From IMG/VR virus record IMGVR_UViG_3300047094_000158: DNA of 64,000 nt. One strand, 5' to 3'. Origin of the DNA: an uncultured virus (IMG/VR IMGVR_UViG_3300047094_000158) (Duplodnaviria > Heunggongvirae > Uroviricota > Caudoviricetes). Shown here in pieces: positions 26,250 through 60,875 of this stretch. Both the position numbers and the translations under genes were made by a program. How positions within the stretch are numbered: the first letter of the stretch is position 1; every line of letters begins with the position of its first letter. The notes beneath the pieces are model-generated. The model was not told the DNA's origin. It did not search any database and worked only from the letters and a program-made list of their open reading frames with translations.

Positions 26250-26885
26250 TTAAACTTCTTCCAAGGTTACCGATATGTTCCAAAGGTCATGATTTGTCGC
26301 TCCACGCTTTATCACGGAATAATTAAAATCTGCAAAGTAAACTTGAATAATTTGGTTATATCTATTCAAACCAGTATATTGATAATTTTCCCCATCTAAA
26401 TTTGTATATTTATCATAAGCAAGGTACATAAAAAATGGACCTTGATGTGTCTCATACCAATCAAGAAGTTCTACTCCACCTGCACCGCCATCTGCTGTGT
26501 ACTCTGTTTTAGATCCTTCACTTGGAGATATGCCAGTTGATGTATTAAATGCTGGATCAGCACTATAGGCTCTTGATGGCAACATGTTCCAAGACACAGA
26601 CATGGTTAGTTTGTCTGCAATATGATATGAACGCATACGACCATTAATTGTTCTTTGGCGTTGCTCAATTCTTTGGGTATTAAATTGCATATCACCCCTA
26701 TTGTGATCAGATAAAATAATAAACTGGTCTAACAGGCTTGGATTTGTTTCTCCCGTAGATGCTCCTACCTCTATCCCATTGGGCACGTATAGGCCATTAG
26801 AGAGGGTTCCAGGGTTGTTTGCCCATAAGATACCCTGGGGTCTTGTATATCTACGTCTACCTGTTAGATAGGCACTAGTAGCCAT
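26250..26885 (-). CDS. Distal-tail (Dit)-like protein
   Basis: Directly follows tape measure; RTINGRMRSYHIADK...WNISVTLEEV. Confidence 0.6.
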   Translation of the reverse strand: MATSAYLTGRRRYTRPQGILWANNPGTLSNGLYVPNGIEVGASTGETNPSLLDQFIILSDHNRGDMQFNTQRIEQRQRTINGRMRSYHIADKLTMSVSWNMLPSRAYSADPAFNTSTGISPSEGSKTEYTADGGAGGVELLDWYETHQGPFFMYLAYDKYTNLDGENYQYTGLNRYNQIIQVYFADFNYSVIKRGATNHDLWNISVTLEEV

Positions 26886-29800
26886 TATATTCTTTGCCCC
26901 CGAATTCTTTGTGAATCAACATTTTTAATTTCTCTTATTACTGCCCTAGCAATATCATTTGGATTTGAGTTACTTCCGTTAATATTAAATCCCAGACTAT
27001 AATTATACACTGCTGTAGAATTATCATTCATTGATGTAGAAATACTATTAACTGGAACCTGGGCACTATTTCTATTGCCAATCATTGAAGGATATTTTGA
27101 CTCATTCAACATTGATAGCAATGGGCCAAACTGCTGGGTTGCTTTTTTGTTCATTACAAACTCGCCAGGGGTGAGCATTGCTGGCACGGTATCAGAGCCA
27201 ATTGATCCACCATTAGCCATATATTTAGGAACTAGTCCTCCCATAGCCATAGATAAAATTTTTCCACCATACATTTTCTTCTGTGCTCCAGTAAATGGAT
27301 CAATGTTTGGATTTGCTTTAAAATAAGCATCGGCTTGGGCCTGTAATCTAACAGATGATGCGGCCAAGCCTGATGCTGGACCTGATGCTATTCCCCTATC
27401 TGTAAATTCTTTTGTTAAATCTTTTTGCATTTTATCATAGTCTGCAGGACCTGCAGTTTTTGCTGTAGGGCTAGGCACTGCTCCTGAAAGCGATGATGCA
27501 GCCTTCATTGAAGCAAGAATACTTGTCCACGCACCTGCTGCTGTGGTGGAAGAAGTGGCAACCTTGTCTATATCAATTACTATTTGATTCAGATGTTTAT
27601 TTGTTGCATCTGTATATCTTTGTATAAAGTCCCACTCAGCCCTTGTCATTCCATTAATTGTTAATGATTGTTGTTCTTTTGAAATTTGAAAATCAAGATC
27701 AGAAAGCAATTTCTTTTTTGCATCTGCTTGTTTTTGTAAAGGTTCAAGTTGTTTTAATTCAATATTATAAATTTCATCGTTTAAAGTAATAATTTTCGCA
27801 TCAATTTGTTTTCTAGTTAACTTTTCACCATTAACAACAGCGGTGACTAAAGACAAATCTTTTTGTTTTTCTAGTTCTAAGTTGCTTGTTGCTTTTTCTA
27901 ATCCTCCACCCATTCTATTAAGGGCTTCCTCTGCTGAACTTGCTCGCATTTCTTGTGCAATTGAAGCGGCTGCTGAAATATCTCCTTGAGTTAATGCGTT
28001 AGCAAGGCCAAGTTGTTTTTGTTGTTGTGAAATCAAAAATGAATTTATTGATTTTATTGATTCAAGAGCGTCTTTTTGTTTATTTAAAGATTCAATTTTT
28101 TTATCATAAGTTTCTGTAATAATACTTTCTTGTTTACCGATTGAGTCAAGAGTGCGACTATAAGATTTAATTTTTAAGTTAATTCCATTAATCTCATCTT
28201 CAATTTTATTAATTGCTTGTTCGTCAATCATAATGCTTAATTCTATTGCTTCTGAAGACATACCATTTATCTTTTTAAATGAATCTTTTGCCTTTTTTTG
28301 AATTTCAATAAATTGATAATCAAAATTTTCACTTAATGCTTCTGCTCCACCTTCTGATAATTCATCTGCTTCAAATTGAGTAGCCTTTAATGCTTTTTCA
28401 AATTCTTTTGTTGCAGCAGTAGCCTTTTTAGTTCTATCAATCATTTTTTCTAGATCTTTGCCATCCAGGTCTTTACTTACGATCGCTGCTGCTTGTGCTG
28501 CATCAGCAGTTAATTCTAGTGCAGTAGCGGCATCAACGCCTCTTGCTCTCAGCATTGATAGTGCTTTATTTTGAGTTGTTTGTTCTCTTGTAATCTGGTC
28601 CTGTTGTCTTAAATATATACCCGCCTGAACTGTTGGGAATAGTCGGTTTAATGATTTACCATAATCGTTTAGCACTAACTTGCCATTCTTTGCCTTACTT
28701 GTAATCTTATCAAAGAATTTTCCTGCTTCTTCTGCACCAAGTCCTTCGGCAAACTGAACTAAACTTTCGTTAGCACCCATACCTTGTAATTGATTTGTAG
28801 TTCCCTTAAATGCATTTATAGATTTTCCGCTACCCAGTTGTTTGACAAGTTCTTTCCAACCACCCAAAGCATTTACAGACTCTTTTCTAAATAATTTTAA
28901 TTTTAATAATAAGTCGTCAAGCACTGTATCTCGTTTGCCAGGACCCTTATCTTCAACAACTCCTCCACCTGGTATTGCTCCTGGTAATATTCCACCCTTT
29001 GCTATAATTTCTGCTGCACTTTTGCCAGCAGCACCTTCAAAACCTTTAAAGTTTGGATCGTTAGATACAACATCAAAAGCAACCTTTAGGTTTTTATTTA
29101 CAAAATCTTTTCCTTCAGACAAAATTGTCCATTGATCATAAAAAGCCTTCCACTCTCCTGGTTTTTCTTCAGCAAGTTTTGCAACTACATCTTTAGTTAA
29201 TGTGGGATCTAGCCCTTCAATTTGTTTTAATGCATTTGTAGCCGTTGCCAATTGCTGTATTCCATTGGCTTTAAGATCAAGAGTAATTCCATATGTAGGA
29301 TTTATTTGATTTAAGAAACTTAATGCTTGCATATCTTTATCAAAATCTTCACTGTTGTTATTAATATATCCAAGCATAAGCGCTCTTGTTGTATCTGTTG
29401 CACCCTCAGATGGTAACAATTCTGCAATTAATGCAGCATCTGCAAGACCTTGCTTGTCAACTAAAAGACTAAATGCTGTTTCAAATCCTTTATTTCCTGC
29501 TGCAGTTGAAAGAATTTTTGTAATTACTGCTGGTCCTACCTGCCCAGATGCAAGACCTACCTGCAACTCTGTTTTAAATTCTGAATCTTTTAAATTATTT
29601 AATGCGTCTAATGCTTGATCTTTAAAGACTGCCATTGGACCTTCTTTATACATCGCATCTGCTGCTGCCTTAATTCCTTTAGTAAACGCTTCTCCTCCTA
29701 GTTGATCTCTTTGTTTTACTAATAAATTTAATGCATTTGCATTACTTGCATTTAATGTAGCAAGACCTGCTTTTCTTTGATCTTCAATTGTTTTTATTTC

Positions 29801-32800
29801 TTGTTCTGTTTTTGCAGACTTTAACTTTAAATCATATTGTTTATTTAATGAATCTACAAGTCCTTGATTTTGTGCTACCTCTTGTATTCCAAGTTCAACT
29901 GCTGCTGCAGCAAGTTTAACATTTACTGATTTTCTTTTATTAGCGTCTGCCTCTCCTCCAAGCATCAATCCCGCTCCAGTAGCGGCAAGGGCTGCACCTG
30001 GAACTGCAGCAGCGCCTGCGGTGAGAACGGCAGCGGCTGCTCCTGCTGCTATTAATCCAAAGCCAGCAACTCTTGCCAATACATTTGGACCAGTTGATTC
30101 ACTAATAGCCCCATCTACTGCTGTTCTAAAAGAGTCAGCCTGTCTTTGCATAGAATCTTTTTGTATTTGCAATGTTACCTGTAATGGATCTGTTGCAAGG
30201 TTTTCGCCATTTGGACCAAGCAGACTTACAAGTTTTCCACTTACTAGTGCTGGAATTTCATAACTTCCAAGTTTTTCTCCAAGTGCTGCAGAAATGCTTC
30301 TTGCTTGACTTGTTGTTACCGCTCCTTGTGCAACTGCAACTGCTAAATTATTAGCAAGGTTTTGAGATATTTCTTTAATTGATTTACCACTTTTAGATTG
30401 TTTTTCTATATCTGCAAGAATTCCTTTTCCAAACTCACTCTCTAATGTATTTTGTCCAAACTGTCTTTGTCCTTCAACTGTTCCAGAAACTATGTTTTTT
30501 CTTCTTCTTGCAGCCTCTTCACTTGCACTTACAGTTCCAGCAATAACAGATAAAGCAGTTAATTTTTCTGAAGTCATACTCATTGATTTAGCAAGATTAA
30601 TTCCTTCTAGCCTTGCTTTTTCTAAATCTTTACCCATTTTATATATTACTCCACCAACCAAAGCAAATCCAGCAACAACTGCTACCAAAGGATTAGCGAG
30701 TAGTGGAAGAATCATAGCAATACCCTGTAATCCAAAAACAAATGGCATTATAGTTTGAGCCATTTCTCCTAACTTGCCTCCAGCAAAAGATGCTGCAATT
30801 GTAAGTCCAGAGATAGCGCCAAGGCCCATAGTTGCTTTTGAACTAAAAGCAGTCAGACTTTGTTTTGCTGTTTTTGTTTGCTTTGTAAGATCATCTGTAG
30901 CCTGGGTTGATTGTTTTATTGATTCATTTTGTTTTTTTATTTCTTGTTGCTGTTTAGCAATTAAACCTCTAGGACCCATTGCCAATTTAGATGTAGCCTC
31001 AGATAAAGGAACTCCTTTGCTGTCAACCTTTTGAGCATCAGCAAAGCCACGTATTCTTCTAATTCTTTGAACTACAGTTTCTTTTGGACCAAGAGTTGTT
31101 GTTCTATTATCTGCAATATTTCTGCTTGTTGTTCCAACCGATGCTGGCTTTCTTTCAGTGTTTTGTCCAGTAAGTGCGGTTAATTTTCCACTGGAATCAC
31201 GCTTAAACTCTCCTCTTGCTCTAACGGCAACAGTTTCTTTTTGAGGTTGTTTACTAATTAATCTATCAAAGGTATCATTCATTGATTTAGTAATTTTAAG
31301 AACCTGTCGTCCACCACCTAGAAATTCTCTTTGTGATCTAAACTTTCCATCAACTAATCCATTCATTACATTATTCCCTGTAACTTTTCCACCTGTTATT
31401 TCAGGTCTTCTATAAGCAACAATTTCACCTGCACTATTTAGGCTAGTTGGAATTTGAAGATTTGGATTAAGTTTTTTTAACTCATTTAATTTTTTAACCA
31501 ATACTGGATTTGAACGAGTTTTTTGTACTGCCTTAATTACATCATCAATTGGCTTTAATTTATTTGTTGCAATTTTTGATCCGCCAACCGCACTTGTAGA
31601 TGCTGCTCCAAGCAATGATCTTGCTGCTTTAGATATAATTGGATCTCCTGATTTTGCAAGCGCACCCATAATTCCAGTTCTTTCATTACCCATTCTAGAG
31701 TAAATCATTTTGTCATTAATTAAAGTACCAGATGGCAAACCACTTAAAGATTTTAATAAATTTCCTCTAATTTGTTGTGCAACTTTATATGCTTCTCTAT
31801 CTGGAATTCCTCTTTTAGCCAGACTTAAAGTCATTGTTCTTAAAGAGTTGTTATTAAGAAGGGCTTTTCTATAATCATCAATGTTTACTCTTGAATTAGT
31901 TCTGTTTAATTGTGCATTCATTTCTTTAGGAATATCAAAGCCAACGGACGTATAAAGATTTTCTCTTCCAAAGCCAAGTTGTCTAAATTTATCTGATACG
32001 TTTGCTCCAGAAACTTGTCTATAATCTACAGCATGTCCAAATGCCAAGCCTGGCTTTACTCCAGTTGTTCCACCATTATATTGTGCAATTTTTCCACTTA
32101 CAAGTGCTGCAACTAATGGTTTAAATCTATCGTCTTGTGCTATTGGCTCTGGAACTACTGCTTCTCCAGGAGTTAATAATGCTGGTACAGAATCTTTTCC
32201 TGATTCCCCGCCAACTACACCTGTAGTTCCAGAAGAAAACTTTTGCGTTCCTCCGCCTTTTATTCCTCTAAATCCTGGTAACATCATTCCTGGATTTGTT
32301 GCTGCAAACCTTGCTGCTGCTGCAGTTGCATCAATATATGCCTGACGAAGTAATTTCAGTGAACCTGCTTCCATTACAAACTGTTGTGTAAGTTGTGTAT
32401 GTCTTTGATTTAGTGATGCTGCTATTGTTGCAGCCTCTAATTGTTCTACTGATAAATAATTTGTTTGTTCTGCAAGGATTTTTGAATTACCGCCAAGCCT
32501 TAAAAATCCACTACGCATTACTGCAAATAATTTAATACCATTTGCAACAGCGTTTAATAATAAACCAAAAGTCATTAATAATACTGGGCCAATAACTCCA
32601 ACCAGTGTAGTTGCTACTACTATAAACTTCTTTGTGCCATCTCCAAGATTATTAAATTTATCTAATAAGCCAGCAATTGATTGAGCAATTGGAGTTACTG
32701 CTTCTAAAAATGTTTTACCAATTGGCGCAAGAGTTAACTTAAGATCTTCAATTGCTTTTTTAAATTTAGTTCCAACAGCATTCTCTAAAACTCCAAGTTC

Positions 32801-34252
32801 TCTTTCAGACATAATCGCAAGTTGTTCAACTGAGTTTGTTGTTAAAGCAAGTACCTTTGATGCCTGTGTTCCATCTTTTGTTACGTTTTGAAATAATGTT
32901 GATAAACGTGAAAATTGGAACTTGCCGAATAACTGTTCAATTGCACGAGCACGATTAAGTGGATCTAATGTATCCAAGGCTCTTGAAAAGTCAATAACTG
33001 TTTGTCTAATGTTTCCTTGGTTGCCTTCTACAATTGCATTAATATTAATACCAAACCCTGCAAGCATGGCGCTTGCTTTTTTTGTTGGATTAATTAATGA
33101 TGCAAGACCAGATTTGAGTGCGTTGGCGCCTTCTGATGCATTGATACCGCCCTCTTTCATGGCAGTCAAGAAAAATGCTAAATCTTCAACATCTCCACCA
33201 AGTTGTTTAACAACTGGACCTGCTTTAGGAATTGCAATAGTTAAATCTTCAATAGATACAACTGTTTGGTTTTCAACTGCGTTAAGAAAGTCAATCTTTT
33301 TTGCTAAATCTTCTGCTGCTATTCCAAAAGCATTTGTTACTGATATTGTGGTTTCTAATGCTTGACTCTGTTCTACTCCACCAAGGACTGCAAGTCTTGT
33401 AGCCTGTGCAACTTGTGCAGTAAGTTCTGCTCCAGTTTTACCCATTGCCGCAGCATCTGCTGCCATCTTCATTGTATCTACAACTGCTACACCATACTTT
33501 GTAAATGACTCTGCAAGTTGTTTTATATTTTCAAGAGCCTCATTTGTTTGTTCCGTTGTTGTAAAGACGTCTCCATAAACACGTTTAAATCTAATAGCCT
33601 GTTTTTCAAGATCCATAAATGTTCTGCCAGCCACAGTTCCTAAATAAACAAGTGGAATTGTAAAACCAACCATAAGTTGGCGACCTGCCCATTGTGTGTT
33701 TTTACCAAAGTTTAAAAGATTGGTAGATCCTTGTTTTAATAATTGATTAAATAGTGCTTGTTTTTGTGCTGCCATAGCAATTTGCGTGCCATAGTCTTTC
33801 ATGTTTAGGCTAGTTGGAGTAACAGAGATAGCCTTCATTGCTCCGCTTGCATCACGGCCTAGTTTAATATATTGTGTTTGTAATTTTTTTACACGCTCTT
33901 GCGCTACCTTGCCAATTGTGTCAAACTCTGTTTTAAATAATCTTCCAAATGTTTTTGTTGAACCGCCCGCAAAACGGAAGTATTCACGCATTGACAGTTT
34001 ATTTTTTTCAAGAGAATGTGTAAAAGATTCTGTAGATGTTCTAACAACACCCATTTGTGCTGAAAATTTACCAGTAGCATTTATTGAATTCAGCAGATTC
34101 TGCTGCATATTTCTTTGTTGAGCAGCAGCAGAAGCACTACCCTTTGATACCGAAGTATGGAATAGTGCTAACTGTCGCTGTAAACCTTTAAGTTCCGCTA
34201 ACGCCTGCGACGTATCAATTTGTACGCCAATTTTGGCATTAACATCACTCAT
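26885..34252 (-). CDS. Tail tape measure protein
   Basis: 2455 aa, Ala/Gly-rich helical TMP core (EGANALKSGLASLINP), hydrophobic segments, follows tail chaperones. Confidence 0.93.
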   Translation of the reverse strand: MSDVNAKIGVQIDTSQALAELKGLQRQLALFHTSVSKGSASAAAQQRNMQQNLLNSINATGKFSAQMGVVRTSTESFTHSLEKNKLSMREYFRFAGGSTKTFGRLFKTEFDTIGKVAQERVKKLQTQYIKLGRDASGAMKAISVTPTSLNMKDYGTQIAMAAQKQALFNQLLKQGSTNLLNFGKNTQWAGRQLMVGFTIPLVYLGTVAGRTFMDLEKQAIRFKRVYGDVFTTTEQTNEALENIKQLAESFTKYGVAVVDTMKMAADAAAMGKTGAELTAQVAQATRLAVLGGVEQSQALETTISVTNAFGIAAEDLAKKIDFLNAVENQTVVSIEDLTIAIPKAGPVVKQLGGDVEDLAFFLTAMKEGGINASEGANALKSGLASLINPTKKASAMLAGFGININAIVEGNQGNIRQTVIDFSRALDTLDPLNRARAIEQLFGKFQFSRLSTLFQNVTKDGTQASKVLALTTNSVEQLAIMSERELGVLENAVGTKFKKAIEDLKLTLAPIGKTFLEAVTPIAQSIAGLLDKFNNLGDGTKKFIVVATTLVGVIGPVLLMTFGLLLNAVANGIKLFAVMRSGFLRLGGNSKILAEQTNYLSVEQLEAATIAASLNQRHTQLTQQFVMEAGSLKLLRQAYIDATAAAARFAATNPGMMLPGFRGIKGGGTQKFSSGTTGVVGGESGKDSVPALLTPGEAVVPEPIAQDDRFKPLVAALVSGKIAQYNGGTTGVKPGLAFGHAVDYRQVSGANVSDKFRQLGFGRENLYTSVGFDIPKEMNAQLNRTNSRVNIDDYRKALLNNNSLRTMTLSLAKRGIPDREAYKVAQQIRGNLLKSLSGLPSGTLINDKMIYSRMGNERTGIMGALAKSGDPIISKAARSLLGAASTSAVGGSKIATNKLKPIDDVIKAVQKTRSNPVLVKKLNELKKLNPNLQIPTSLNSAGEIVAYRRPEITGGKVTGNNVMNGLVDGKFRSQREFLGGGRQVLKITKSMNDTFDRLISKQPQKETVAVRARGEFKRDSSGKLTALTGQNTERKPASVGTTSRNIADNRTTTLGPKETVVQRIRRIRGFADAQKVDSKGVPLSEATSKLAMGPRGLIAKQQQEIKKQNESIKQSTQATDDLTKQTKTAKQSLTAFSSKATMGLGAISGLTIAASFAGGKLGEMAQTIMPFVFGLQGIAMILPLLANPLVAVVAGFALVGGVIYKMGKDLEKARLEGINLAKSMSMTSEKLTALSVIAGTVSASEEAARRRKNIVSGTVEGQRQFGQNTLESEFGKGILADIEKQSKSGKSIKEISQNLANNLAVAVAQGAVTTSQARSISAALGEKLGSYEIPALVSGKLVSLLGPNGENLATDPLQVTLQIQKDSMQRQADSFRTAVDGAISESTGPNVLARVAGFGLIAAGAAAAVLTAGAAAVPGAALAATGAGLMLGGEADANKRKSVNVKLAAAAVELGIQEVAQNQGLVDSLNKQYDLKLKSAKTEQEIKTIEDQRKAGLATLNASNANALNLLVKQRDQLGGEAFTKGIKAAADAMYKEGPMAVFKDQALDALNNLKDSEFKTELQVGLASGQVGPAVITKILSTAAGNKGFETAFSLLVDKQGLADAALIAELLPSEGATDTTRALMLGYINNNSEDFDKDMQALSFLNQINPTYGITLDLKANGIQQLATATNALKQIEGLDPTLTKDVVAKLAEEKPGEWKAFYDQWTILSEGKDFVNKNLKVAFDVVSNDPNFKGFEGAAGKSAAEIIAKGGILPGAIPGGGVVEDKGPGKRDTVLDDLLLKLKLFRKESVNALGGWKELVKQLGSGKSINAFKGTTNQLQGMGANESLVQFAEGLGAEEAGKFFDKITSKAKNGKLVLNDYGKSLNRLFPTVQAGIYLRQQDQITREQTTQNKALSMLRARGVDAATALELTADAAQAAAIVSKDLDGKDLEKMIDRTKKATAATKEFEKALKATQFEADELSEGGAEALSENFDYQFIEIQKKAKDSFKKINGMSSEAIELSIMIDEQAINKIEDEINGINLKIKSYSRTLDSIGKQESIITETYDKKIESLNKQKDALESIKSINSFLISQQQKQLGLANALTQGDISAAASIAQEMRASSAEEALNRMGGGLEKATSNLELEKQKDLSLVTAVVNGEKLTRKQIDAKIITLNDEIYNIELKQLEPLQKQADAKKKLLSDLDFQISKEQQSLTINGMTRAEWDFIQRYTDATNKHLNQIVIDIDKVATSSTTAAGAWTSILASMKAASSLSGAVPSPTAKTAGPADYDKMQKDLTKEFTDRGIASGPASGLAASSVRLQAQADAYFKANPNIDPFTGAQKKMYGGKILSMAMGGLVPKYMANGGSIGSDTVPAMLTPGEFVMNKKATQQFGPLLSMLNESKYPSMIGNRNSAQVPVNSISTSMNDNSTAVYNYSLGFNINGSNSNPNDIARAVIREIKNVDSQRIRGQRI

Positions 34253-34268
34253 TCTTTCACCTCATTAT

Positions 34269-34601
34269 TTAATTGTTTGCAAGAACTGTGTTCAAGAGTG
34301 CATTTGCATCTTGAAGTTTTACCCCTGAAGCAGATTCAATAATTCTGTAAACAGTTGGAAGATCAATATTTTCTTCTAACTTTTTAGCATCTTCTGCAAT
34401 TTCTGGCTTATATTGCTTCATAGCAATTTGAACACACTCAATAAGGACAGTTGTTGACTTGTCATTATCCTCTGCCACCTCTGCTAGTTCTGAAAACTTT
34501 TTCATAAATGGACGAAGTAATGAGATTTTAAGCGGTCTTGCTTTAATCTTGCTTCCGTCCAAAAGAACTAGTTCTACCTCTTCATACGTGTTTGTTGCCA
34601 T
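34269..34601 (-). CDS. Tail assembly chaperone, short (gpG-like) form
   Basis: Between MTP and TMP; clear paralog of the N-terminal ~100 aa of 34663..35358; SD AGGAGG. Confidence 0.75.
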   Translation of the reverse strand: MATNTYEEVELVLLDGSKIKARPLKISLLRPFMKKFSELAEVAEDNDKSTTVLIECVQIAMKQYKPEIAEDAKKLEENIDLPTVYRIIESASGVKLQDANALLNTVLANN

Positions 34602-34628
34602 TGATTTTTCCTCCTATAGGCTATGTCA

Positions 34629-34637
34629 ATTATAGCA
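34629..34637 (-). promoter_or_regulatory. Extended -10 promoter TGCTATAAT
   Basis: Recurrent motif upstream of the short chaperone and TMP. Confidence 0.7.
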
Positions 34638-34662
34638 TGATGATGATTATTTTTTTATTATT

Positions 34663-35358
34663 TTATTTTGTTAAATCTTCGTAATCTAAACCATGACCAA
34701 TGCCAAACCCTGCTTTTTGGGCACTATGTCCTTGAAGAGCCAAAATGTCTTTGCCATCGCCTGTCTTGCCTTTGCTAAATACTCTGGCCTTCATATCTTC
34801 CCACTCTTTTTGTCCCCTATCATTACCTGATTGCTTATCTAAATCTACCCCCTGAATTGCAGCAAGAAATTTTTTTTCTTCATAGTCAAGTTCTCTACGA
34901 CTAGAAAGGGTGGCCATTAATTCTGGCATAGATAGCGATTCTTCTAATTCTTTGTAATCTTTCCAAATGCCCAATAAAAATACTTCTGCTTCTATTTTTG
35001 CTAAATCTAACTCAGACCAAGTAGCATTACTGTCTTTTGCTTGATCTTTTACTGTTTCTTGAGATTCTTTGTTTATTTTAATTCCCGCTGCAACATCTAA
35101 TATTGAATATATAGTTGGCATGTCTAGGCTATCTTCTATGTCCTCTTTGTTTAGTGCTACATCTGGATAATATTGTTTCATACAAATTCTAATGCACTCT
35201 GTTATACATTCTATGGCTTCGTCATCATTTTTGGCTTTTTTGACATACTCAAATGCTTCCATAAACTCACGTAAATGTTTTATTTTTAATGGATTTATTT
35301 CTAACTCTGTGCCATCAATAAGTTTTATTACTTTATTTTGATAAACGGTTGTTGCCAT
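34663..35358 (-). CDS. Tail assembly chaperone, long (gpG-T-like) form
   Basis: G-like N-domain fused in frame to a C-domain (WSELDLAKIEAEVFLLGIWKDYKELEESLSMPEL); start lies 7 nt after TGATAGAAT (35366-35374), no SD. Confidence 0.75.
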   Translation of the reverse strand: MATTVYQNKVIKLIDGTELEINPLKIKHLREFMEAFEYVKKAKNDDEAIECITECIRICMKQYYPDVALNKEDIEDSLDMPTIYSILDVAAGIKINKESQETVKDQAKDSNATWSELDLAKIEAEVFLLGIWKDYKELEESLSMPELMATLSSRRELDYEEKKFLAAIQGVDLDKQSGNDRGQKEWEDMKARVFSKGKTGDGKDILALQGHSAQKAGFGIGHGLDYEDLTK

Positions 35359-35381
35359 AATTTCTATTCTATCATAGGCAA

Positions 35382-35419
35382 AACAAAAAACCCACCTAAT
35401 TAAAGGTGGGCTTTTGTTT
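35382..35419. terminator. Intrinsic terminator after major tail protein
   Basis: CCCACCT-aattaa-AGGTGGG stem with flanking AACAAAA / TTTTGTT. Confidence 0.85.
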
Positions 35420-35433
35420 AATCTAAGTTTAGA

Positions 35434-36075
35434 TTATGATTGTCCATAGGTACGATCAATGATCTTACCGTAAGAACCTGATGTATCTTCAGGAAGAAGA
35501 CGGAATGAAACTTCAAACATTGACGGCTCATCACGCTTTGCTGACACAGTTACGTTCTCAATTGATAGAGCACGATATGCTGCATAGATGCGTTCTTTGT
35601 CCGCAAAAGTGGCTGGGTCACCAGATCCTGGACCAACAGCAACGATTCCTCGTTCTACTGGAACATCTCCGATATCTCCTGCACTTAAGTTAAGTGTTTG
35701 ACCTGTTGATGCGTTTTTATTTCCTGTTATTTTATCATCAGAGTATGCTAGTGCTACAAGCAAGTTTTCTAGGGTTGCTTCAGCAAAAGCGGTAGCAAGA
35801 TTTACTTGCATACCTTGCTTGTATAGTCTTGCAACGTCAAGAATTTGATCTACCTGAACTTCACCGAAGTCTGGTTGGAATTGTAATTCTAAACCATTCA
35901 TGGTGTAACCCACGTTGGTATAAGTAGCGGCTGATGTAAGTGTTTCCTTGTAAGACTCACTTGAATCAATCACTGCTGATGACGCTAAAGTTGCTGGAGT
36001 CAAAGTTGTATCATTAATGAAGAATGCTGCTGCACCCACGATAATGTTATTTGACGTACCACGGCTATATGGCAT
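35434..36075 (-). CDS. Major tail tube protein
   Basis: VGYTMNGLELQF...VDQ...ATAFAEATLENL pattern; strong SD GAGGTG; followed by terminator. Confidence 0.85.
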   Translation of the reverse strand: MPYSRGTSNNIIVGAAAFFINDTTLTPATLASSAVIDSSESYKETLTSAATYTNVGYTMNGLELQFQPDFGEVQVDQILDVARLYKQGMQVNLATAFAEATLENLLVALAYSDDKITGNKNASTGQTLNLSAGDIGDVPVERGIVAVGPGSGDPATFADKERIYAAYRALSIENVTVSAKRDEPSMFEVSFRLLPEDTSGSYGKIIDRTYGQS

Positions 36076-37853: not shown

Positions 37854-38854
37854 TACAACACTCCAGGACGAACAATATTATTAACATATTTAGACAAAAT
37901 CTTGTCTACAATAATATTTCCAGTACCCTCAATCATTCTTTTGTCATATTCAATTTTAAATTGATCAGTGCTGTAGTTCTTGATATATCTCTTGTAATAA
38001 TCTAATTTTCCACACCTAATATCTTCAACCAATAACTTTGTAGCATCTTGAATATCAATAGGAACTACCTTGTATCCAGTTTCTAACAATAATATAAGAT
38101 CTATTCCTGTTGGAAATGCTACTCCAGGGGTTACGGTCATAGTGTTTCCGCTGTCCTCTGTATCAAAAAGTGAAAAAGAATCTGACGTACCAATTGGAAT
38201 TCTTGATGGTCGGCGCTCTGCTCTATTTATTGCACCCTCTGACGCAGTTGGATCTTTTGTAAGTGCAGTCTTATCTTTAGTAATTACGTATGTGTAGTCT
38301 CCTACAGTTGGGCCATCAGGGTTGTATATGTCATAAACTAGTTCTGTATTTTCGTATACTCTTAATATTTTGTGTACTTTTTTCCAAAGTGGAATATAGT
38401 CTACTTCTTGTCCAACAATCTCTAAAAATTCACGTTCATAATAAAAGCCACCAGTTATTGAATCAATAATTGTTCTTGCTAAATTTTCATACTCTACATA
38501 TTTGGCAATTTCTGTTGCAGATGTTTGATTGTTTGCTGCTGCTAAAAGTGTAGGGTCTACATATGGACGCTTTACCTCTAGGTTATCTTCAACAACTATA
38601 TCTCCACGATCTGCTACAACCATGCCACTTTCTTCTAAATCTTCATAAATTGTCAAAGCATATGATTTATCATATTTAATAAAATCATCATCTAATACAT
38701 AACTAACCTGTTTGCTGGCGTCGGATGTTCTGTAAGAGGCAATTTCTGATTGCTCTGCGACATCTTCAATGACTATAACATACTTAGCGTTAGCGTCTGG
38801 AACTGTATACTTAACAGTTAAAGGATATGGTGGTAGACGAAGAATTGTTGACAT
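37853..38854 (-). CDS. Head-tail adaptor (putative)
   Basis: ARTIIDSITG...GYKVVPIDIQDATKLL...GTGNIIVDKILSKY connector-like motifs. Confidence 0.65.
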   Translation of the reverse strand: MSTILRLPPYPLTVKYTVPDANAKYVIVIEDVAEQSEIASYRTSDASKQVSYVLDDDFIKYDKSYALTIYEDLEESGMVVADRGDIVVEDNLEVKRPYVDPTLLAAANNQTSATEIAKYVEYENLARTIIDSITGGFYYEREFLEIVGQEVDYIPLWKKVHKILRVYENTELVYDIYNPDGPTVGDYTYVITKDKTALTKDPTASEGAINRAERRPSRIPIGTSDSFSLFDTEDSGNTMTVTPGVAFPTGIDLILLLETGYKVVPIDIQDATKLLVEDIRCGKLDYYKRYIKNYSTDQFKIEYDKRMIEGTGNIIVDKILSKYVNNIVRPGVL

Positions 38855-39210
38855 TATGCTTTAGCGTAATAAGATGCTACTTCTTCAGGTTGTGCTATAC
38901 GTACTAACCTGTGAGTAAGCCACTTTTCCGATGCCTCCTTTGAGACTATGTTATACCCCACGCTTAATGCGCCCAGGCTATCCATGTGAATATTTCTACC
39001 TGAATATAGTGCTACTTTGTTTGTTAAGTTTTTATCTTTACCTGCTTTTTCTGCAGTTTCTTCTGTTTTTTCTGGCGGAATCCAACTAGCCAAAATTTCT
39101 AAAATTTCAAGTTTTGTGTTTGATTCAAATAATTCTATGTTGTTTTTCTTTGCATATGCCTTTAATGCCATTACTGTTTTATCTTTTAGTTGATCCATTG
39201 TTAAATTCAT
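38854..39210 (-). CDS. Protein with Rho-N/HeH-like helical domain
   Basis: LKDKTVMALKAYAKKNNI...KLEILEIL; SD GGAG before ATG 39210; promoter TGGTATAAT at 39234-39242. Confidence 0.65.
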   Translation of the reverse strand: MNLTMDQLKDKTVMALKAYAKKNNIELFESNTKLEILEILASWIPPEKTEETAEKAGKDKNLTNKVALYSGRNIHMDSLGALSVGYNIVSKEASEKWLTHRLVRIAQPEEVASYYAKA

Positions 39211-39257
39211 ATTTTCTCCATTGTCCATTTGTAATTATACCATTATAATGACAATAA

Positions 39258-39304: not shown

Positions 39305-40450
39305 TTAGGAATCAGCACTATCTGAGTCAACATAAGCGACTGCATCTAGTTCTTCCCAAGCAAGACCAAATCGTACGAATACTGTGTATTCAATTGTGTC
39401 TTTCTTTGGTTTGTATTCACGGTTTACAGTGATGTCTCTCTGGAAGCCCCATACACGGTTAGAAGGGAATGTTAAATCAACATAACCTGCTGGGTAGTAA
39501 GGAACTTCTAGTACATCTACACCTAGTACACGAGTTGTACGTGCATTACCAAATGTCTGTGCAGCACCATCCATGTAATCTTGACGGTTTTGCTGTGTGC
39601 TACCAGTGCGATCAGAGAACGCTGCTGAGATAGCATCTGCTAATGTACCGTTGTTACGAACAATACCAGCAAAAGCATCAGTACCTGCGTAGAACTTAAG
39701 ATTGCTCTTAAGTGCACGGTACTTACGAGGCATTGCCAATAGCAAGCCTTGCATTACTGATGTAGTAAAGTTGTTGTCTGATACTGTTGCAGCATATTCG
39801 TGAGCAGCATTTCCTACTGTTCCACGAGTTTGCTTTACGAAACCAGGCATGATGGACAAGAAATCTCCTGTTGCTCCATCACCGTTGATAGCAAGATCTT
39901 CAATATCGTTACCGAATGCGTTGGTCATTAATCGTACTAGACGATCTTCCAATGCTCCGCCTTCAATATTGTCTTCAAGTGCTTCAGTTGCTACTTCCCA
40001 ATCAAGACGAATCTTTTTTGTTGTTAGTTCAACTTTTGTAAATCTAGCGCCAGTGTTTGTGTAGTTTGGTGAGCCTTGTGATGCTGCACGAATTACACGC
40101 TCTCCGACGTTGACTTTTTCAATTTCCATGGTGTTTGCTCTCATGGTGACACGACGGCCATCTTTAGCAAGGACAGTTGCATCCCATACATAATCAATAA
40201 AGCGTTGTGCTTGTTCAGGACGTAGGATACCTCCTGCGTTACCAGTTGGGTTTACTGCGTTATCTCCAGTTGTTGAACCGAAGCCTGCAGTAGCAGTGTG
40301 ACCAAGTTGTGAACCTACAGATGATCCTGCAGCATCCAGACCAGTAGCACTACCAACACCACCAGATACTAAAGATCCCGCTGAGTTAATCTCTGCGCCA
40401 TCTCCTGAACCTGGATAGTTTTTTTCTATCTTTGTGTTTTGTTCCGACAT
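39305..40450 (-). CDS. Major capsid protein (HK97 fold)
   Basis: GGILRPEQAQRFID, EALEDNIEG, DIEDLAINGD; SD GGAGGTG; downstream of protease/scaffold. Confidence 0.92.
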   Translation of the reverse strand: MSEQNTKIEKNYPGSGDGAEINSAGSLVSGGVGSATGLDAAGSSVGSQLGHTATAGFGSTTGDNAVNPTGNAGGILRPEQAQRFIDYVWDATVLAKDGRRVTMRANTMEIEKVNVGERVIRAASQGSPNYTNTGARFTKVELTTKKIRLDWEVATEALEDNIEGGALEDRLVRLMTNAFGNDIEDLAINGDGATGDFLSIMPGFVKQTRGTVGNAAHEYAATVSDNNFTTSVMQGLLLAMPRKYRALKSNLKFYAGTDAFAGIVRNNGTLADAISAAFSDRTGSTQQNRQDYMDGAAQTFGNARTTRVLGVDVLEVPYYPAGYVDLTFPSNRVWGFQRDITVNREYKPKKDTIEYTVFVRFGLAWEELDAVAYVDSDSADS

Positions 40451-40479: not shown

Positions 40480-41055
40480 TTAGTTAAATAGGTCGGCATT
40501 TGTGAGGAAACGACCGCCCCATAGGGTTTTATGAATCACTTGTGGTGATTCCTGTACGATCTCGCCTAGATCGCCAGACTTGCGGAAAGCGGTATCTTGT
40601 TCTACAAGATCTACTCGCTTGCCAAACTCGTTAAAGTTGTTCTTGATTCCATTAACATCAGATGTTACCGATTCAAGAGATTTTGTTACTGCTGTTACTT
40701 TCTCATTAAGAGATTTAATAGTTTCAGCAAGATCGCCAAAGGCATTAGTAAGAGAACTATTAATTTCTGAAACTGCTTTAGCAACTTCTTCTTTAACATC
40801 TGCAACAGATTTTTCCACTGCATTCTCTACTTCAACTGCTGCTTTTGCAACAGAAGAATCTGCACTAGCATCATCTGACTTAGCAACTGCAAGTTCTTCA
40901 ACTGCTGGTGCTTCTTCAGCGATTGCAGGGGTTTCTTTTGCTTCTGCAACAACTTCTGTTGCTGCTTCTAAGGTTACCTCTGCTGGCTGTGCCTCTGGAG
41001 CAACCTCTGCATTTTCAACTGCAGTTTCTATAACTGCTTCTGTTGATTCTGTCAT
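40480..41055 (-). CDS. Nested in-frame scaffold protein (internal start)
   Basis: AAGGAGGT 7 nt before ATG 41055 (MTESTEAV...), at the protease/scaffold boundary. Confidence 0.75.
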   Translation of the reverse strand: MTESTEAVIETAVENAEVAPEAQPAEVTLEAATEVVAEAKETPAIAEEAPAVEELAVAKSDDASADSSVAKAAVEVENAVEKSVADVKEEVAKAVSEINSSLTNAFGDLAETIKSLNEKVTAVTKSLESVTSDVNGIKNNFNEFGKRVDLVEQDTAFRKSGDLGEIVQESPQVIHKTLWGGRFLTNADLFN

Positions 41056-41814
41056 TGGATTTACCTCCTTAGTAATCTTAATTGTATTAATGCCTTTAGC
41101 ACTATCAACTAAGAATTTTATCATTTCTACGTTATCTTTATCGTTTTTTTCTATAAAGCCAATATTTTGCATTTTGTTTCCAGTTACTGGACTTGTTACT
41201 GAATCAGAGTCTGAGACCATAACAATGCCGTTTTCTGAATCCCAGAATACGTTTTCAATTTCTGTTTTTGACAAATAACCTTCAACAACGTTTTGTCCAT
41301 TTACTTTTTCAATAGACACAATGTTTGCAAACTGATTTGCTGGATTGTCTACAAGAGAAAGTTCATGCAATTCATAAGTTTTAATTACACGAACTGTTTT
41401 GTCAATTTTTTCATCATAAGCATCGTCCCAAGTTTTAATGTTTCCGCCAATTGAAAAACCAGTATATGTTCCGTCTAAAACTTTTTCCCATGCATCTTGT
41501 GCACCCTTAGAAACATAAGCAGATACGTAAACTCCGCTGTAAAATTTTTTGTCACTAGGATCAAAATACTTATCTTCTTTAAAAGAAACAATTTTTCCTA
41601 CAGCACTTGGCTGATGCATTTCACGAAGATTGCCACGGAAATTCTTAAAAGCCTCTATACTAGATTCTGTTGTAACGATGTCACCTTGACGGTCAACATT
41701 GTCAAGCGTAGCAAAACCAGACACCATACGGCGTTCAACGTCTATTTTTCCAATGGGCATTGAAAGGCGAACATTGTCACCTTTAGTTTCCCAATGAGCC
41801 TTATTTATTAACAT
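40480..41814 (-). CDS. Prohead protease fused to scaffold
   Basis: DRQGD, LREMH, GFSIGG, ELSLVDNPAN (HK97-type protease); acidic Ala/Glu-rich coiled C-half. Confidence 0.9.
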   Translation of the reverse strand: MLINKAHWETKGDNVRLSMPIGKIDVERRMVSGFATLDNVDRQGDIVTTESSIEAFKNFRGNLREMHQPSAVGKIVSFKEDKYFDPSDKKFYSGVYVSAYVSKGAQDAWEKVLDGTYTGFSIGGNIKTWDDAYDEKIDKTVRVIKTYELHELSLVDNPANQFANIVSIEKVNGQNVVEGYLSKTEIENVFWDSENGIVMVSDSDSVTSPVTGNKMQNIGFIEKNDKDNVEMIKFLVDSAKGINTIKITKEVNPMTESTEAVIETAVENAEVAPEAQPAEVTLEAATEVVAEAKETPAIAEEAPAVEELAVAKSDDASADSSVAKAAVEVENAVEKSVADVKEEVAKAVSEINSSLTNAFGDLAETIKSLNEKVTAVTKSLESVTSDVNGIKNNFNEFGKRVDLVEQDTAFRKSGDLGEIVQESPQVIHKTLWGGRFLTNADLFN

Positions 41815-49535: not shown

Positions 49536-50825
49536 TTAGTAAGCACCCATAATTATGATTGCTTCGTCTACTCCTGCTGCAGGTGTTGACCAAGATAAAA
49601 TTGCAGAGCCATCTGTTGTTAAAACCTGATTAGCAGTTCCATCTGTTGAAGGAAGTGTCCATACCTTATTTGCTGCAACAGTTTCTGGAGATTTAAAACC
49701 AACATAGTGACTTGAGTCTGTATCTGCAAGTCTAAGTTCTGCTGTAGCATTAAGAGTAAATGATGTTGTTGCTACCGCACTTCCTAATGTTTTATTAGTA
49801 AGGGTTTCTGAAACATCTTTAAGCAAAGTGCCATTCATATGATATGACTTGCCTGAAGCAAGATTAATATGTTCTGATGAAGTCCAAGCGTCTGTAGCGT
49901 CTACCCAGTTAAAGGTTTTATCAGTTGTTCCTTTTAATGTTATACCGCCACCATCTGCAGTTGCGTCTGCTGGTTCTGTAGTGTCTCCAAGAACAATGTT
50001 TTTATCTTCAACAACAAGGTTCGTTGAATTAATATTTGTTGTTGTTCCATTAACTGTTAAGTTACCAGAAAGAGTTAAATCTGTTCCAGATACCGCCCCA
50101 GTAAATGTTGCTCCTGAAAGATTTGCTTTTAGATTAAGTTCTGTTTGAGTTGCAGTTGAGACTGGTTTATTTGCATCTGTTGTATTATCAACATTTGCAA
50201 GACCAACGTCTGTTTTTGTAATTCCAGTAGGTGTATTGATTACTGGAGAAGTTAAAGTTTTGTTTGTAAGTGTTTCTGTTTTTGAAGCAGTTGACTTATC
50301 GTCTAGTTGGGTTTGAATTGCTGAAGTAACACCATTAAGGTATCCAATTTCGGTATCAGACACATCTGTAACACGAGCCTGAATTGTTGTGGTGTCTACT
50401 GCCAAAGTTAGTGTGTTTGCGCCATCGTTATAAGTCTTTGTTATACCTGTACCCGCAGTTAGTGCAGAATCAATAGCATCTTGTGAAAGTTCTGAAATAT
50501 CAGATGTTAGGGCTACTGTGCCTGTTGCATCTGGAAAAGTAATTGTACGGTCAGCAGTTGGGTCTGTTATTGCAAGAGTTGTCTCAAAATCATTTGCGGT
50601 AGCGCCTTCAAAAGTAATGCTTGAACCAAAAGCAGGGTTAACGGTAGAGTTAACATCAGAGAAGTAGTCTAGGCTTGTCCAGTTATTTACACCATCACCA
50701 ATTTTAAATTTATTTGTGTCTGATTCCCAACCCATTTCGCCAGCATTTAATACTGGTCCTGCTCCTCCGTTTGTAGAGATCCACTGCGCTGCAGTTCCTC
50801 TACGCTGTTGCATTCTGGTTGCCAT
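49536..50825 (-). CDS. Fibre protein with Mtd_N-like N-terminal domain and C-terminal IIMGAY tag
   Basis: MQQRRGTAAQW...GEMGWESDTNKFKIGDG..W..LDY; shared fibre repeat modules; LTNKTL repeats. Confidence 0.8.
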   Translation of the reverse strand: MATRMQQRRGTAAQWISTNGGAGPVLNAGEMGWESDTNKFKIGDGVNNWTSLDYFSDVNSTVNPAFGSSITFEGATANDFETTLAITDPTADRTITFPDATGTVALTSDISELSQDAIDSALTAGTGITKTYNDGANTLTLAVDTTTIQARVTDVSDTEIGYLNGVTSAIQTQLDDKSTASKTETLTNKTLTSPVINTPTGITKTDVGLANVDNTTDANKPVSTATQTELNLKANLSGATFTGAVSGTDLTLSGNLTVNGTTTNINSTNLVVEDKNIVLGDTTEPADATADGGGITLKGTTDKTFNWVDATDAWTSSEHINLASGKSYHMNGTLLKDVSETLTNKTLGSAVATTSFTLNATAELRLADTDSSHYVGFKSPETVAANKVWTLPSTDGTANQVLTTDGSAILSWSTPAAGVDEAIIIMGAY

Positions 50826-53114: not shown

Positions 53115-53561
53115 TTAGGCCTTTAATCCCATACGCATATAGCGTAGAGTTATAGGTGTAATTCCCCCAACTGGAACAACAGTTAATGAAACTGTATCTC
53201 CAGCCCGTGAAACAGAGATGGTGCCAATATTCCCATCATTTTCAACTATTCCATATTGACTAACGGATACATCTGTTCCGTCAACTAATATAGATAATTC
53301 AGTAGCAGAGTATTTGTTTCCTCCACCTGCTACATATTTAAGTGAGATCATATACTTCATTGATCTAAACTCGCTTGCTAAAAAGTTATCAAACACTGTT
53401 GAGTTTTCAATTCCATTAATTGTTGACTCGTTATTGCCATCTGAACCAAGATCTGTAGACCTAGCAGAAGTGCTGTCAATTAAATCTTCGTAGTTTGCCT
53501 GTGTTGGTCTATCTCCTGTTTCAAACAGGGCCTTAACGTTTGCTGTTGATATCTTTGCCAT
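53115..53561 (-). CDS. Fibre base/adaptor protein
   Basis: N-terminal FETGDRPTQANYEDLIDS; C-terminal RSMKY domain similar to the C-domain of 51339..53099. Confidence 0.7.
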   Translation of the reverse strand: MAKISTANVKALFETGDRPTQANYEDLIDSTSARSTDLGSDGNNESTINGIENSTVFDNFLASEFRSMKYMISLKYVAGGGNKYSATELSILVDGTDVSVSQYGIVENDGNIGTISVSRAGDTVSLTVVPVGGITPITLRYMRMGLKA

Positions 53562-53583: not shown

Positions 53584-53805
53584 TTAAAGTATATAGTTAT
53601 TTACACCAATAACTTGAAGACCAATTCCAGGGATATTTGCATTTGCTGGAGCAATTCCTATTGTGGTAAATTTAATTCTAAAGGGTAAAATTTCATTAAT
53701 TTTTACTGAATTTGCTTTGTAAATTATTTCAGATAGTGGGTAGCCAACAGAATTTATTCTTTTTAATTTTTGACTATCTGTATCAACAATTACAGCATAG
53801 GCCAT
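53584..53805 (-). CDS. Small virion linker protein
   Basis: Coupled (TAATG) to the upstream BppU-like gene; PGIGLQVIG. Confidence 0.65.
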   Translation of the reverse strand: MAYAVIVDTDSQKLKRINSVGYPLSEIIYKANSVKINEILPFRIKFTTIGIAPANANIPGIGLQVIGVNNYIL

Positions 53806-54218
53806 TATGACTCTTGACCGTTTGTAATATCCTCAATGATTGTTAGGGTGCCACGAGCAACTGTCCAAACCCTAGTTGCATCACTTAGTTCAATATCAAA
53901 AATATCACCTGTATTAAGACTTCTTGATTCTGCCGAAGTTAAAGATACTGTAAACTCTCCATCTCCATCTTCTACTGTGGCTACTGGATATAACGTTAAT
54001 ACACTTGTTGGATTTGCATCATTAAGATTACCCGCTACTGTTGGTCTTTTAATTTCCATTTCAACTGTCCACTCAGAAATAACTAGTGGATCTTTGTCGT
54101 CATCTGTTACGTATACCCTAAATGCAGCGGTATCACCTTTTACAACTGTCCATTGTACGGTTGGCGGGGTAGATCCAACGGAATATGAACTTTGTGATTG
54201 ATTTCTAAATGTAGCCAT
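53805..54218 (-). CDS. BppU-N-like anchor protein, paralog 3
   Basis: VVKGDT...FDIEL...ARGTLTIIEDIT; promoter TGGTATAAT at 54228-54236. Confidence 0.65.
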   Translation of the reverse strand: MATFRNQSQSSYSVGSTPPTVQWTVVKGDTAAFRVYVTDDDKDPLVISEWTVEMEIKRPTVAGNLNDANPTSVLTLYPVATVEDGDGEFTVSLTSAESRSLNTGDIFDIELSDATRVWTVARGTLTIIEDITNGQES

Positions 54219-60053: not shown

Positions 60054-60773
60054 TTATGATACTGCTATATATATGCCTTTTAATATAAAAGATCCTTCAT
60101 TGTCTGTTCTGATTTGAGGGATGCCTCCATAATTTTTTATCTTGTCGCTATTTATAAAAATGGTTTGAGAGTAAGACAGGTCATATTGATATTGATATTT
60201 TAATAACCCAACATATCCTATAGGTGATAATTCTTCGTTTCGTAAAAAGGTTCTAATCCAAACTTCTGTATTGTTTGAATATGTTTCTAAAGAAAAATCA
60301 TACCTAACCTCTACCTTTGCCCCTACTTTAAGTGTTTTTAGGTTGATAGTCTTTGCTATTTGATTTAATAAAGAAACTGATTTGTTTGGAAGATATGCTT
60401 CATTGGTTTGGGATTCATCTATATCTAAGAAAAAAGAAACCCATCCATCTTCTCCTCTTTCTGGACCGACTTTATAAGTCTTTGTATTTTTTCCAACATA
60501 GTGTGCCCACCCAGGGTACTGACCAGAGGGGCTATCGTATCCTTCTGCACCTTTACCCGTATCACCTTTTTCTCCTTTTGGTCCTTGTAGTCCTTGTGCA
60601 CCCTTTTCGCCTCTATCACCTTTTATACCTTGAGGGCCTTGAGGACCAATTGGCCCCACTTCACCTTTTTCCCCTTGGATTCCAGGAACGGCAATATACT
60701 CAATAGATTTTGTTTGTTCTACAGTCTCAGTGTATTTTTTCTTTTTGATTGGAAAATCCATGCTCTTTGTCAT
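60054..60773 (-). CDS. Collagen-like fibre protein
   Basis: 14 consecutive Gly-X-Y triplets followed by a globular beta domain. Confidence 0.8.
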   Translation of the reverse strand: MTKSMDFPIKKKKYTETVEQTKSIEYIAVPGIQGEKGEVGPIGPQGPQGIKGDRGEKGAQGLQGPKGEKGDTGKGAEGYDSPSGQYPGWAHYVGKNTKTYKVGPERGEDGWVSFFLDIDESQTNEAYLPNKSVSLLNQIAKTINLKTLKVGAKVEVRYDFSLETYSNNTEVWIRTFLRNEELSPIGYVGLLKYQYQYDLSYSQTIFINSDKIKNYGGIPQIRTDNEGSFILKGIYIAVS

Positions 60774-60785
60774 GTTTTCCAAACC

Positions 60786-60875
60786 TTACTTTATTTTTGT
60801 CTTAAAGACCTTTTTGCCAATTTTAACAATTGGTGGAATATTTGTATTTGGAGTAGAAACCTTTACAACTGGCAT
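60786..60875 (-). CDS. 29-aa basic peptide MPVVKVSTPNTNIPPIVKIGKKVFKTKIK
   Basis: Below ORF-track cutoff; TAATG coupling to upstream gene, GGAGG upstream, fills the gap exactly. Confidence 0.65.
   Translation of the reverse strand: MPVVKVSTPNTNIPPIVKIGKKVFKTKIK

Follow-up and report, generated by a model that had tools for sequence, protein, structure and literature searches.

Two paralogous genes in the tail gene cluster of an uncultured lake phage (IMG/VR record IMGVR_UViG_3300047094_000158) probably correspond to the tail assembly chaperone pair of lambda-type phages in a hard-wired form, in which the G form would outnumber the G-T form and two genes have replaced the need for a ribosomal slip. 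The DNA that we analyzed, referred to below as the window, is 64,000 nucleotides (nt) in length, and all coordinates refer to the whole of it; both genes lie on the minus strand, between the candidate gene for the major tail protein (MTP) and the gene for the tape measure protein (TMP). According to the list of open reading frames (ORFs), the long gene (positions 34663 to 35358) encodes 231 amino acids (aa); the short gene, G2 (positions 34269 to 34601), encodes 110 aa. A first-pass annotation, made from the letters alone, had proposed that the two products align over approximately 100 aa and that the long gene extends in frame into an extra domain, and both proposals are borne out. The pairwise alignment of the N-terminal domains that it had recommended as a check gave significant similarity by BLASTP, with 37 of 96 residues identical (39%), 72% positives, and one gap (E = 7e-26), the alignment starting at residue 1 of both proteins, and the long gene runs on in frame for some 130 residues past the shared region.

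Comparison with the PHROGs profiles divided the long protein in the same way. Residues 1 to 106 matched phrog_10504 (3.5e-23) and residues 131 to 197 matched phrog_10474 (4.8e-15), the short protein matching phrog_10504 only (2.1e-22); both families carry the label "unknown function." We refer to residues 1 to 100 of the long protein (positions 35059 to 35358, minus strand), which fall in phrog_10504 and share the 39% identity with the short protein, as the G1 domain and to residues 114 to 231 plus the stop codon (positions 34663 to 35019, minus strand), which are in frame with G1 and contain the phrog_10474 match, as the T domain. The product of the short gene comprises a G domain and a short zero-frame tail, with no T. 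A short and a long product with a common N-terminal G domain, to which T is added in the long one, are therefore present, in the altered form of a domain that is paralogous and not identical.

The homologues of these genes in other phages are organized differently. A tblastn comparison of the long protein with 50,697 phage records matched 127, all from Streptomyces phages, of which those looked up belong to the Stanwilliamsviridae. In all of the best 40 of these 127 records, the match fell in two pieces over two adjacent ORFs, which were often annotated "tail assembly chaperone" and then "hypothetical protein." In Circinus and MulchMansion the second ORF is in frame -1 relative to the first and is open from 55 and 58 nt, respectively, before the stop codon of the first; similarity of the T ORFs of the Streptomyces phages to the C-terminal half of the window protein (WEELDLAKLEAEVFLLG...) begins 5' of the annotated ATG, and the T domain of the window is 42 to 51% identical to these -1-frame ORFs. 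The same -1 layout was found in the uncultured outgroups L089, L178 to L181, and L188, and across the outgroups the T frame is open from 19 to 58 nt before the G stop codon. A slippery heptamer lies exactly at the opening of the T frame, CCCAAAT in Circinus, CCCAAAA in L089, and CCCAAAC in L178, L181, and L188, and sits on a conserved Asp/Ser-Pro-Asn/Lys of G. The motif C_CCA_AAN occurs at the overlap in four of five outgroup lineages (in L001, L089, L178, L181, and L188 and not in L002), and no canonical slippery heptamer was found at the overlap of MulchMansion. According to excerpts of one report, C_CCA_AAG is among the highly shift-prone heptamers in E. coli (PMC5009743). The outgroup layout, as judged from its reading frames, is the classic G/G-T arrangement. 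The tail-tube proteins of L089 are 60 to 68% identical to that of the window; this nearest frameshift-type outgroup (L089:280-2031) carries two tandem MTP genes, 60% and 68% identical to the window gene product.

The long protein of the window is collinear with the slip product predicted by joining the G and T frames of the outgroups. Between the conserved G(I/V)K and the T domain's conserved Trp, the distance is 19 residues in the window, compared with 13 in L089 and 14 in Circinus. The long form is not made by a programmed frameshift, as G1 and T share one stop-free frame, and no X_XXY_YYZ heptamer in the zero frame was seen when the sequence of the G1-linker junction was read, no systematic scan having been made. 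The tail of the short protein, LQDANALLNTVLANN, resembles the zero-frame G tails of the outgroups (LNDPNLLAMAAEALGKN in Circinus and LNDPNLLGASLVGMN in L188), with the Pro codon of the slip site replaced (GAT GCA AAT in the short gene versus GAC CCA AAY).

The arrangement is common among relatives of the window phage. We fetched 180 IMG/VR loci with four queries, some contigs being fetched twice, and classified them by tblastn and reading frame; this is the survey of the MTP-TMP interval that had been suggested in the first-pass annotation, and it separated 175 loci with G and T in one stop-free frame from 5 with a single, canonical -1 locus and no second G. A second G homologue preceded the TMP gene in 171 of the 175 fused loci, and in the remaining 4 the contig edge lay just after or within the long gene; the chaperone genes thus occupy the interval between the MTP and TMP genes in the window and in 171 related loci. 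Among these 171 second copies, 160 were complete, 10 were cut by the end of the contig, and 1 (L057) was frame-broken. The set contained 115 distinct pairs of long and short proteins. As the arrangement is common to 175 of 180 related loci, it is not an artifact of assembly. In six loci (L024, positions 3725 to 4372; L026; L027; L028; L036; and L054), the long and short genes are separated by an insertion, a gene for a 215-aa S-adenosylmethionine-dependent methyltransferase (Methyltransf_25, 4.7e-17).

Wider searches matched 375 stretches in IMG/VR and, at E values of ≤0.001, 6487 proteins in a collection clustered at 90% identity. When 1.84 billion proteins were clustered at 50%, few representatives spanned both domains (P0121, P0122, and P0125; 48 to 62% identity), and dozens covered either G alone or T alone, the T-only ORFs beginning within the T domain or shortly ahead of it, so that the fused form marks one clade and the slip is the surrounding state. 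Scans of viral contigs with P0141 and P0140 gave no confirmed loci. Contigs from genome bins showed the fused gene with a separate G in four of five cases and the canonical layout in one; three of the five bins were labeled Actinomycetota, and, since the binning of phage contigs is unreliable, these labels are only a hint of an actinobacterial host, consistent with the Streptomyces phage relatives. The protein library also contained three odd relatives, P0123 (295 aa), P0130 (286 aa), and P0136 (136 aa): two are long forms that run on into unrelated C-terminal sequence, and one is a G ORF whose frame continues into the beginning of T and ends shortly after the conserved EVF. Assembly errors are one possible explanation for the three, and further junction variants another.

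The assignment of the pair as tail chaperones is drawn mainly from position and from homology to the annotated chaperones of Streptomyces phages, evidence that points to a role in tail assembly. The order of genes in the direction of transcription is capsid gene, five small genes, MTP, long gene, short gene, and TMP, all on the minus strand. The MTP candidate (213 aa; positions 35434 to 36075) matched phrog_2175 (1.2e-31) and, weakly, phrog_885, labeled "major tail protein" (0.0038), and is 42 to 46% identical to the annotated major tail proteins of Circinus and MulchMansion. The TMP gene (positions 26885 to 34252) starts 16 nt past the short gene, with GAGGTGA before its ATG, and encodes 2455 aa, the N terminus of which is 23 to 25% identical to annotated tape measure proteins of Streptomyces phages. 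A language-model feature search with the short protein returned tail assembly chaperones as the top named clusters (0.90 to 0.91), and the two best, if weak, fold matches of the G1 model (described below) are YqbN and the HK97 tail assembly chaperone.

The start signals of the two genes contrast with each other. The first-pass annotation had described a terminator separating both genes from MTP, a nonconsensus promoter and a leaderless start without a Shine-Dalgarno (SD) sequence for the long gene, and a consensus -10 element with AGGAGG for the short gene; the motifs that it quoted lie in the window where it had placed them, and the pattern recurs in the relatives. An intrinsic-terminator-like hairpin with a T tail (positions 35386 to 35415, minus strand; 12 pairs, of which 5 are G-C, by scan) lies between MTP and the long gene, and in 52 related sequences the hairpin 3' of the MTP gene has a 9-pair consensus stem with two-sided changes at 7 of the 9 pairs. 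An extended -10-like element, TGATAGAAT (positions 35366 to 35374), lies 7 nt 5' of the ATG of the long gene, without an SD sequence; for the short gene, a consensus extended -10, TGCTATAAT (positions 34629 to 34637), is accompanied by the SD sequence AGGAGG (positions 34610 to 34615), 8 nt 5' of its ATG. We compared 119 distinct upstream regions of the long gene and 104 of the short gene. An extended -10-like TGNTANNNT was present near the ATG of the long gene in all 119, with the hexamer TAGAAT in 77, TAAAAT in 39, TATACT in 2, TAGAGT in 1, and TATAAT in none; it ended 6 to 9 nt before the ATG in 112 and 14 to 15 nt before it in 7, and a GGAG/GAGG-type SD sequence was found in none of the 119. 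Upstream of the short gene, TGNTATAAT was present in 104 of 104 regions, 23 to 32 nt before the ATG, as was an SD sequence 4 to 10 nt before the ATG (AGGAGG in 91, GGAGG in 5, and GAGG in 8). The short gene retains its promoter and SD sequence downstream of the inserted methyltransferase gene, so the long and short genes are separable units. Codon use, weighted by comparing the capsid and tail-tube genes of the window with its other genes, was nearer to that seen in the genes for major capsid protein and MTP in G2 than in G1 in 25 of 25 diverse loci; as these loci are related, the result amounts to one trend and not to 25 trials.

Ratios of nonsynonymous to synonymous substitution (dN/dS) of 0.22 for G1, 0.11 for T, and 0.13 for G2, which are rough, as dS was near saturation, indicate that all three are under purifying selection. 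The G2 tail, with a dN/dS of 0.76 within the clade that is rough for the same reason, is almost free to vary. G1 has evolved faster than G2, with a mean pairwise identity of 63% versus 76% and a dN of 0.26 versus 0.16.

We suggest the following course of events and mode of action. In the ancestor there would have been only one G gene, T lying in the -1 frame and the slip occurring at C_CCA_AAN, as in sister lineages today; in the clade of the window, one G copy would have been joined in frame to T, and a second copy, between T and the TMP gene, would have kept the old zero-frame tail and lost the slip site. The 110-aa gene would make the G form, and the 231-aa gene would make the G-T form directly, from one open frame and without a slip. 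By analogy with lambda, the G domains of both proteins would cover the tape measure of 2455 aa, and T would bring in MTP. The relative amounts would depend on two separate start regions and no longer on the frequency of slippage: the long gene would be expressed from behind a terminator, from an off-consensus extended -10 situated 6 to 9 nt from the ATG and without an SD sequence, and the short gene from a consensus extended -10 and a strong SD sequence, in cotranscription with the TMP gene. Any transcript initiated at the long gene would also allow the short gene to be read, and we infer more G than G-T.

A number of observations weigh against this account. The structure models were of low to middling confidence: the predicted local distance difference test (pLDDT) score for the long protein was 65.9 overall and 70 to 83 over residues 10 to 100, and that for the short protein was 56.3, too poor for fold searching. 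When the G1 model was compared by VIA-align with 48,161 chains, YqbN, which we take to be a prophage tail chaperone homologue, ranked first (3klu_A; Z score, 5.2; root mean square deviation [rmsd], 3.4; 85 residues aligned) and the HK97 tail assembly chaperone ranked second (2ob9_B; Z score, 4.5; rmsd, 4.5; 84 residues aligned), Z scores of about 5 lying in the range of chance arrangements. A Foldseek search of the PDB with the long model gave no match at an E value of ≤0.001 and placed the HK97 chaperone at rank 48, from where it came first on rescoring of the list. In Pfam, neither the long protein, nor the short protein, nor a single one of the 28 sequences aligned for the short gene matched a chaperone family, and PDB sequence profiles returned nothing meaningful (best E values of 0.027, for a designed protein, and 0.53). 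The G1 and G2 domains are only 39% identical, whereas in lambda the G portion of GT does not differ from G, and coassembly of G1 and G2 on the tape measure is assumed. In L057 (L057:3753-4081), the sole relative with a broken short gene, the frame is split into pieces of 32 and 77 aa, which may reflect an assembly error or a defective genome.

The proposed excess of G over G-T is subject to reservations of its own. Ahead of the long gene, 7 of the 119 relatives have a leader of 14 to 15 nt with a run of G that could be a weak site for ribosome binding; in the fused relatives that diverge most (L169, L173, L174, and L177), the -10 element lies 14 to 15 nt from the ATG and 4 to 5 G residues precede the start. 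The leaderless layout is also shared by six other window genes on the minus strand (positions 61569 to 61784, 60875 to 61276, 53805 to 54218, 53115 to 53561, 40480 to 41814, which encodes the prohead protease, and 38854 to 39228), each with the consensus TGNTATAAT 5 to 9 nt before the ATG and no SD sequence, so leaderless mRNAs seem, from these upstream regions, to be a regular feature of the window phage. In actinobacteria, leaderless mRNAs occur commonly and are translated well, and it is doubtful that the lack of a leader by itself means low output, especially if the host is actinobacterial. As these six genes have consensus promoters, the off-consensus hexamer would be a better cause than the missing leader if the long gene is weakly expressed. 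The contrasting start signals and codon use plausibly fit an excess of G over G-T, a claim about the ratio that rests on motifs and codon use. In 24 RNA runs from lakes and freshwater, at most 0.10 of the sampled words were present. Contig sets from four RNA runs covered the MTP gene in all four and part of the short gene, at low depth, in X1, X2, and X4, and left the long gene and the TMP start uncovered in all four, but these contigs cannot rank genes and the gaps in them prove nothing.

The origin of the second copy bears directly on the idea, put forward in the first-pass annotation, that duplication replaced recoding; two paralogues do stand where relatives frameshift, but duplication as their source is not settled. 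In a tree of G domains from 25 diverse loci and five frameshift-type G proteins (105 columns), the G1 sequences (support, 90/84) and the G2 sequences (99/86) each formed a group, and the frameshift-type G of L089 was sister to G2 (96/88), with G1 outside that pair, a topology that also runs counter to the course of events suggested above. It is what would be expected if the G1-T or G2 module had been acquired by recombination from a related phage, the copies then being xenologues of the same function, and the roughly equal distances among G1, G2, and the outgroup G proteins (35 to 47% identity) are compatible with such an exchange. We nevertheless consider it rather unlikely: a tree constrained to unite G1 and G2 was worse by only 5.7 log-likelihood units and was not rejected (P = 0.155 in the approximately unbiased test), the long stem of G1 (0.79) together with its faster evolution can pull G1 away from its true sister, and the topology was obtained from 105 columns only. 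Local duplication needs fewer events, and duplication within the lineage is favored over acquisition as the simpler course.

Two further alternatives concern function. The proteins might not be an abundant and a scarce form at all and could instead be made in comparable amounts with divided work, for example, on different stretches of the tape measure, the promoters then serving timing or coupling to TMP. Divergence of G1 and G2 to 39% identity and at different rates, the frequency in the window of leaderless genes with strong promoters, and the great length of the tape measure could all be read in this way, but the departure of the long-gene hexamer from consensus in every one of the 119 upstream regions, set against a consensus element and SD sequence in all 104 for the short gene, and the proximity of G2 codon use to that of the capsid and tail-tube genes in all 25 loci make such a division quite unlikely, and excerpts of the lambda literature indicate that a large excess of G is required in that phage (PMC5009743). 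That one of the genes is a decaying leftover, or that the pair is not a tail chaperone at all, is highly improbable. The missing Pfam family, the lack of a significant PDB sequence or Foldseek match, and the broken short gene of L057 could be cited in its favor; they are opposed by the intactness of both genes in 160 of the 161 loci whose short gene is not truncated at a contig edge, by purifying selection on both genes and the conservation of their start signals, and by agreement among the position of the genes, their homology to annotated chaperones in which T lies in the -1 frame, and the chaperone folds at the top of the structural ranking.

As a separately encoded G and G-T pair, the window genes can be compared with four kinds of known system. 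In lambda, gpG and gpGT are produced by a conserved -1 frameshift (Levin 1993; Xu, Hendrix, and Duda 2004, 2013, and 2014, as cited in excerpts of PMC5009743), and in the model outlined there, G binds the tape measure and T binds the tail-tube protein (PMC5009743). Lambda-type pairs use a +1 slip only rarely, and neither of their proteins ends up in the virion. The window pair resembles that of lambda in lying between the tail-tube and tape measure genes, in comprising a short form and a long form that adds T to a shared N-terminal domain, and in having homologues in sister lineages that use a -1 slip, at C_CCA_AAN. It differs in that the long form is one open frame without a slip, the short form comes from a second gene, and the G:G-T ratio is not tied to the frequency of slippage. 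By analogy, then, the window pair would work like lambda G and G-T while lacking the defining feature of that system, the programmed slip.

The nearest parallel in print is that of T4. Vladimirov, Gautam, and Davidson are said to have described, in 2022 (Virology 566:9), genes 26 and 51 of phage T4 as encoding short and long tail assembly chaperones; the similarity of gp26 to gp51 is 20% over 161 aa (E = 2e-6). As in T4, the short and long forms of the window come from two separate related genes instead of a frameshift. T4, however, is a myovirus, and its two chaperone genes, at the baseplate-hub cluster, are transcribed in divergent directions, whereas the window phage, on its gene order and relatives, is a siphovirus, its genes are tandem and codirectional, with their own promoters, in the interval between the tail-tube and TMP genes, and its close sister lineages still frameshift. 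BLASTP against T4 gave no significant similarity (best E values of 0.033 over 11 aa for the long protein with gp51 and 0.52 for the short protein with gp26), so the two-gene solution seems to have arisen independently, and the likeness is one of solution and not of family. Microbacterium phages of Cluster EA have been reported to have separately expressed chaperone ORFs (Jacobs-Sera et al. 2020, PMC7302621; PMC11659878); these are likened to the window pair by description only, the excerpts of those reports stating neither a shared G domain nor an in-frame G-T fusion. The Stanwilliamsviridae (BillNye, Circinus, Samisti12, MulchMansion, and others) share with the window homologous G (35 to 45%) and T (42 to 51%) sequences, neighboring MTP and tape measure (approximately 2100 aa) genes, and a large-phage replication gene set that includes a DnaE-type polymerase. 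Unlike the window, they lack a second G, their single G gene being accompanied by T in the -1 frame, and in their records T is mostly annotated as a separate hypothetical ORF and not as part of a joined product.

The window as a whole is that of a large phage, with a G+C content of approximately 31 to 40%, and a megablast comparison of 16 kb of it with the phage collection gave no match. It encodes a capsid protein (positions 39305 to 40450, minus strand; phrog_1623, 6.8e-71), a portal, a prohead protease, a DnaE-type polymerase, RecA, DnaB, a primase, and a class II ribonucleotide reductase. Amid the replication genes lies a gene of the tryptophan halogenase family (486 aa; positions 6196 to 7656, minus strand; PF04820, 5.9e-92). 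A 429-aa protein (positions 49536 to 50825, minus strand) with a major-tropism-determinant N-terminal domain (Mtd_N, 5.7e-10) and a 242-aa protein (positions 60054 to 60782, minus strand) with collagen triple-helix repeats are possible fiber or receptor-binding parts. By the rule of thumb of approximately 0.15 nm of tail length per tape measure residue, the 2455-residue TMP would correspond to a tail of about 370 nm.

The G/G-T frameshift is among the most widely conserved recoding events in phages, and its retention is usually explained as a means of fixing the ratio of two proteins that share a domain. The idea of a two-gene chaperone is not new, having been published for T4-like phages, and separately expressed ORFs have been reported in Microbacterium phages; we found no description of a G gene paired with an in-frame G-T paralogue in a siphovirus in a literature search outside which most subscription journals lay. 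What the present data add is a large, environmentally abundant clade that has exchanged the frameshift for two genes and whose sisters, at 60 to 68% identity in the tail tube, still slip. For annotation, the lesson is that where a tail frameshift appears to be "missing" from a siphovirus, a G-T gene in one frame can lie concealed next to another G gene.

Whether the clade represents a natural, widespread, and long-lived replacement of the frameshift, in which G-T could change its G portion freely and the promoters have been tuned separately, is a proposition to which we would give somewhat short of an even chance; the diverged G1 may have acquired a separate role. The clade offers a natural comparison in which it can be asked whether the ratio alone matters, whether an identical shared domain is required, and how promoter and ribosome-binding-site strength can stand in for the frequency of slippage. 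If the proposition is true, the frameshift would be needed neither to provide identical G domains nor to couple synthesis on one mRNA, and the pair, together with its frameshifting sisters, would constitute a ready-made comparison for why the slip is otherwise so widely kept.

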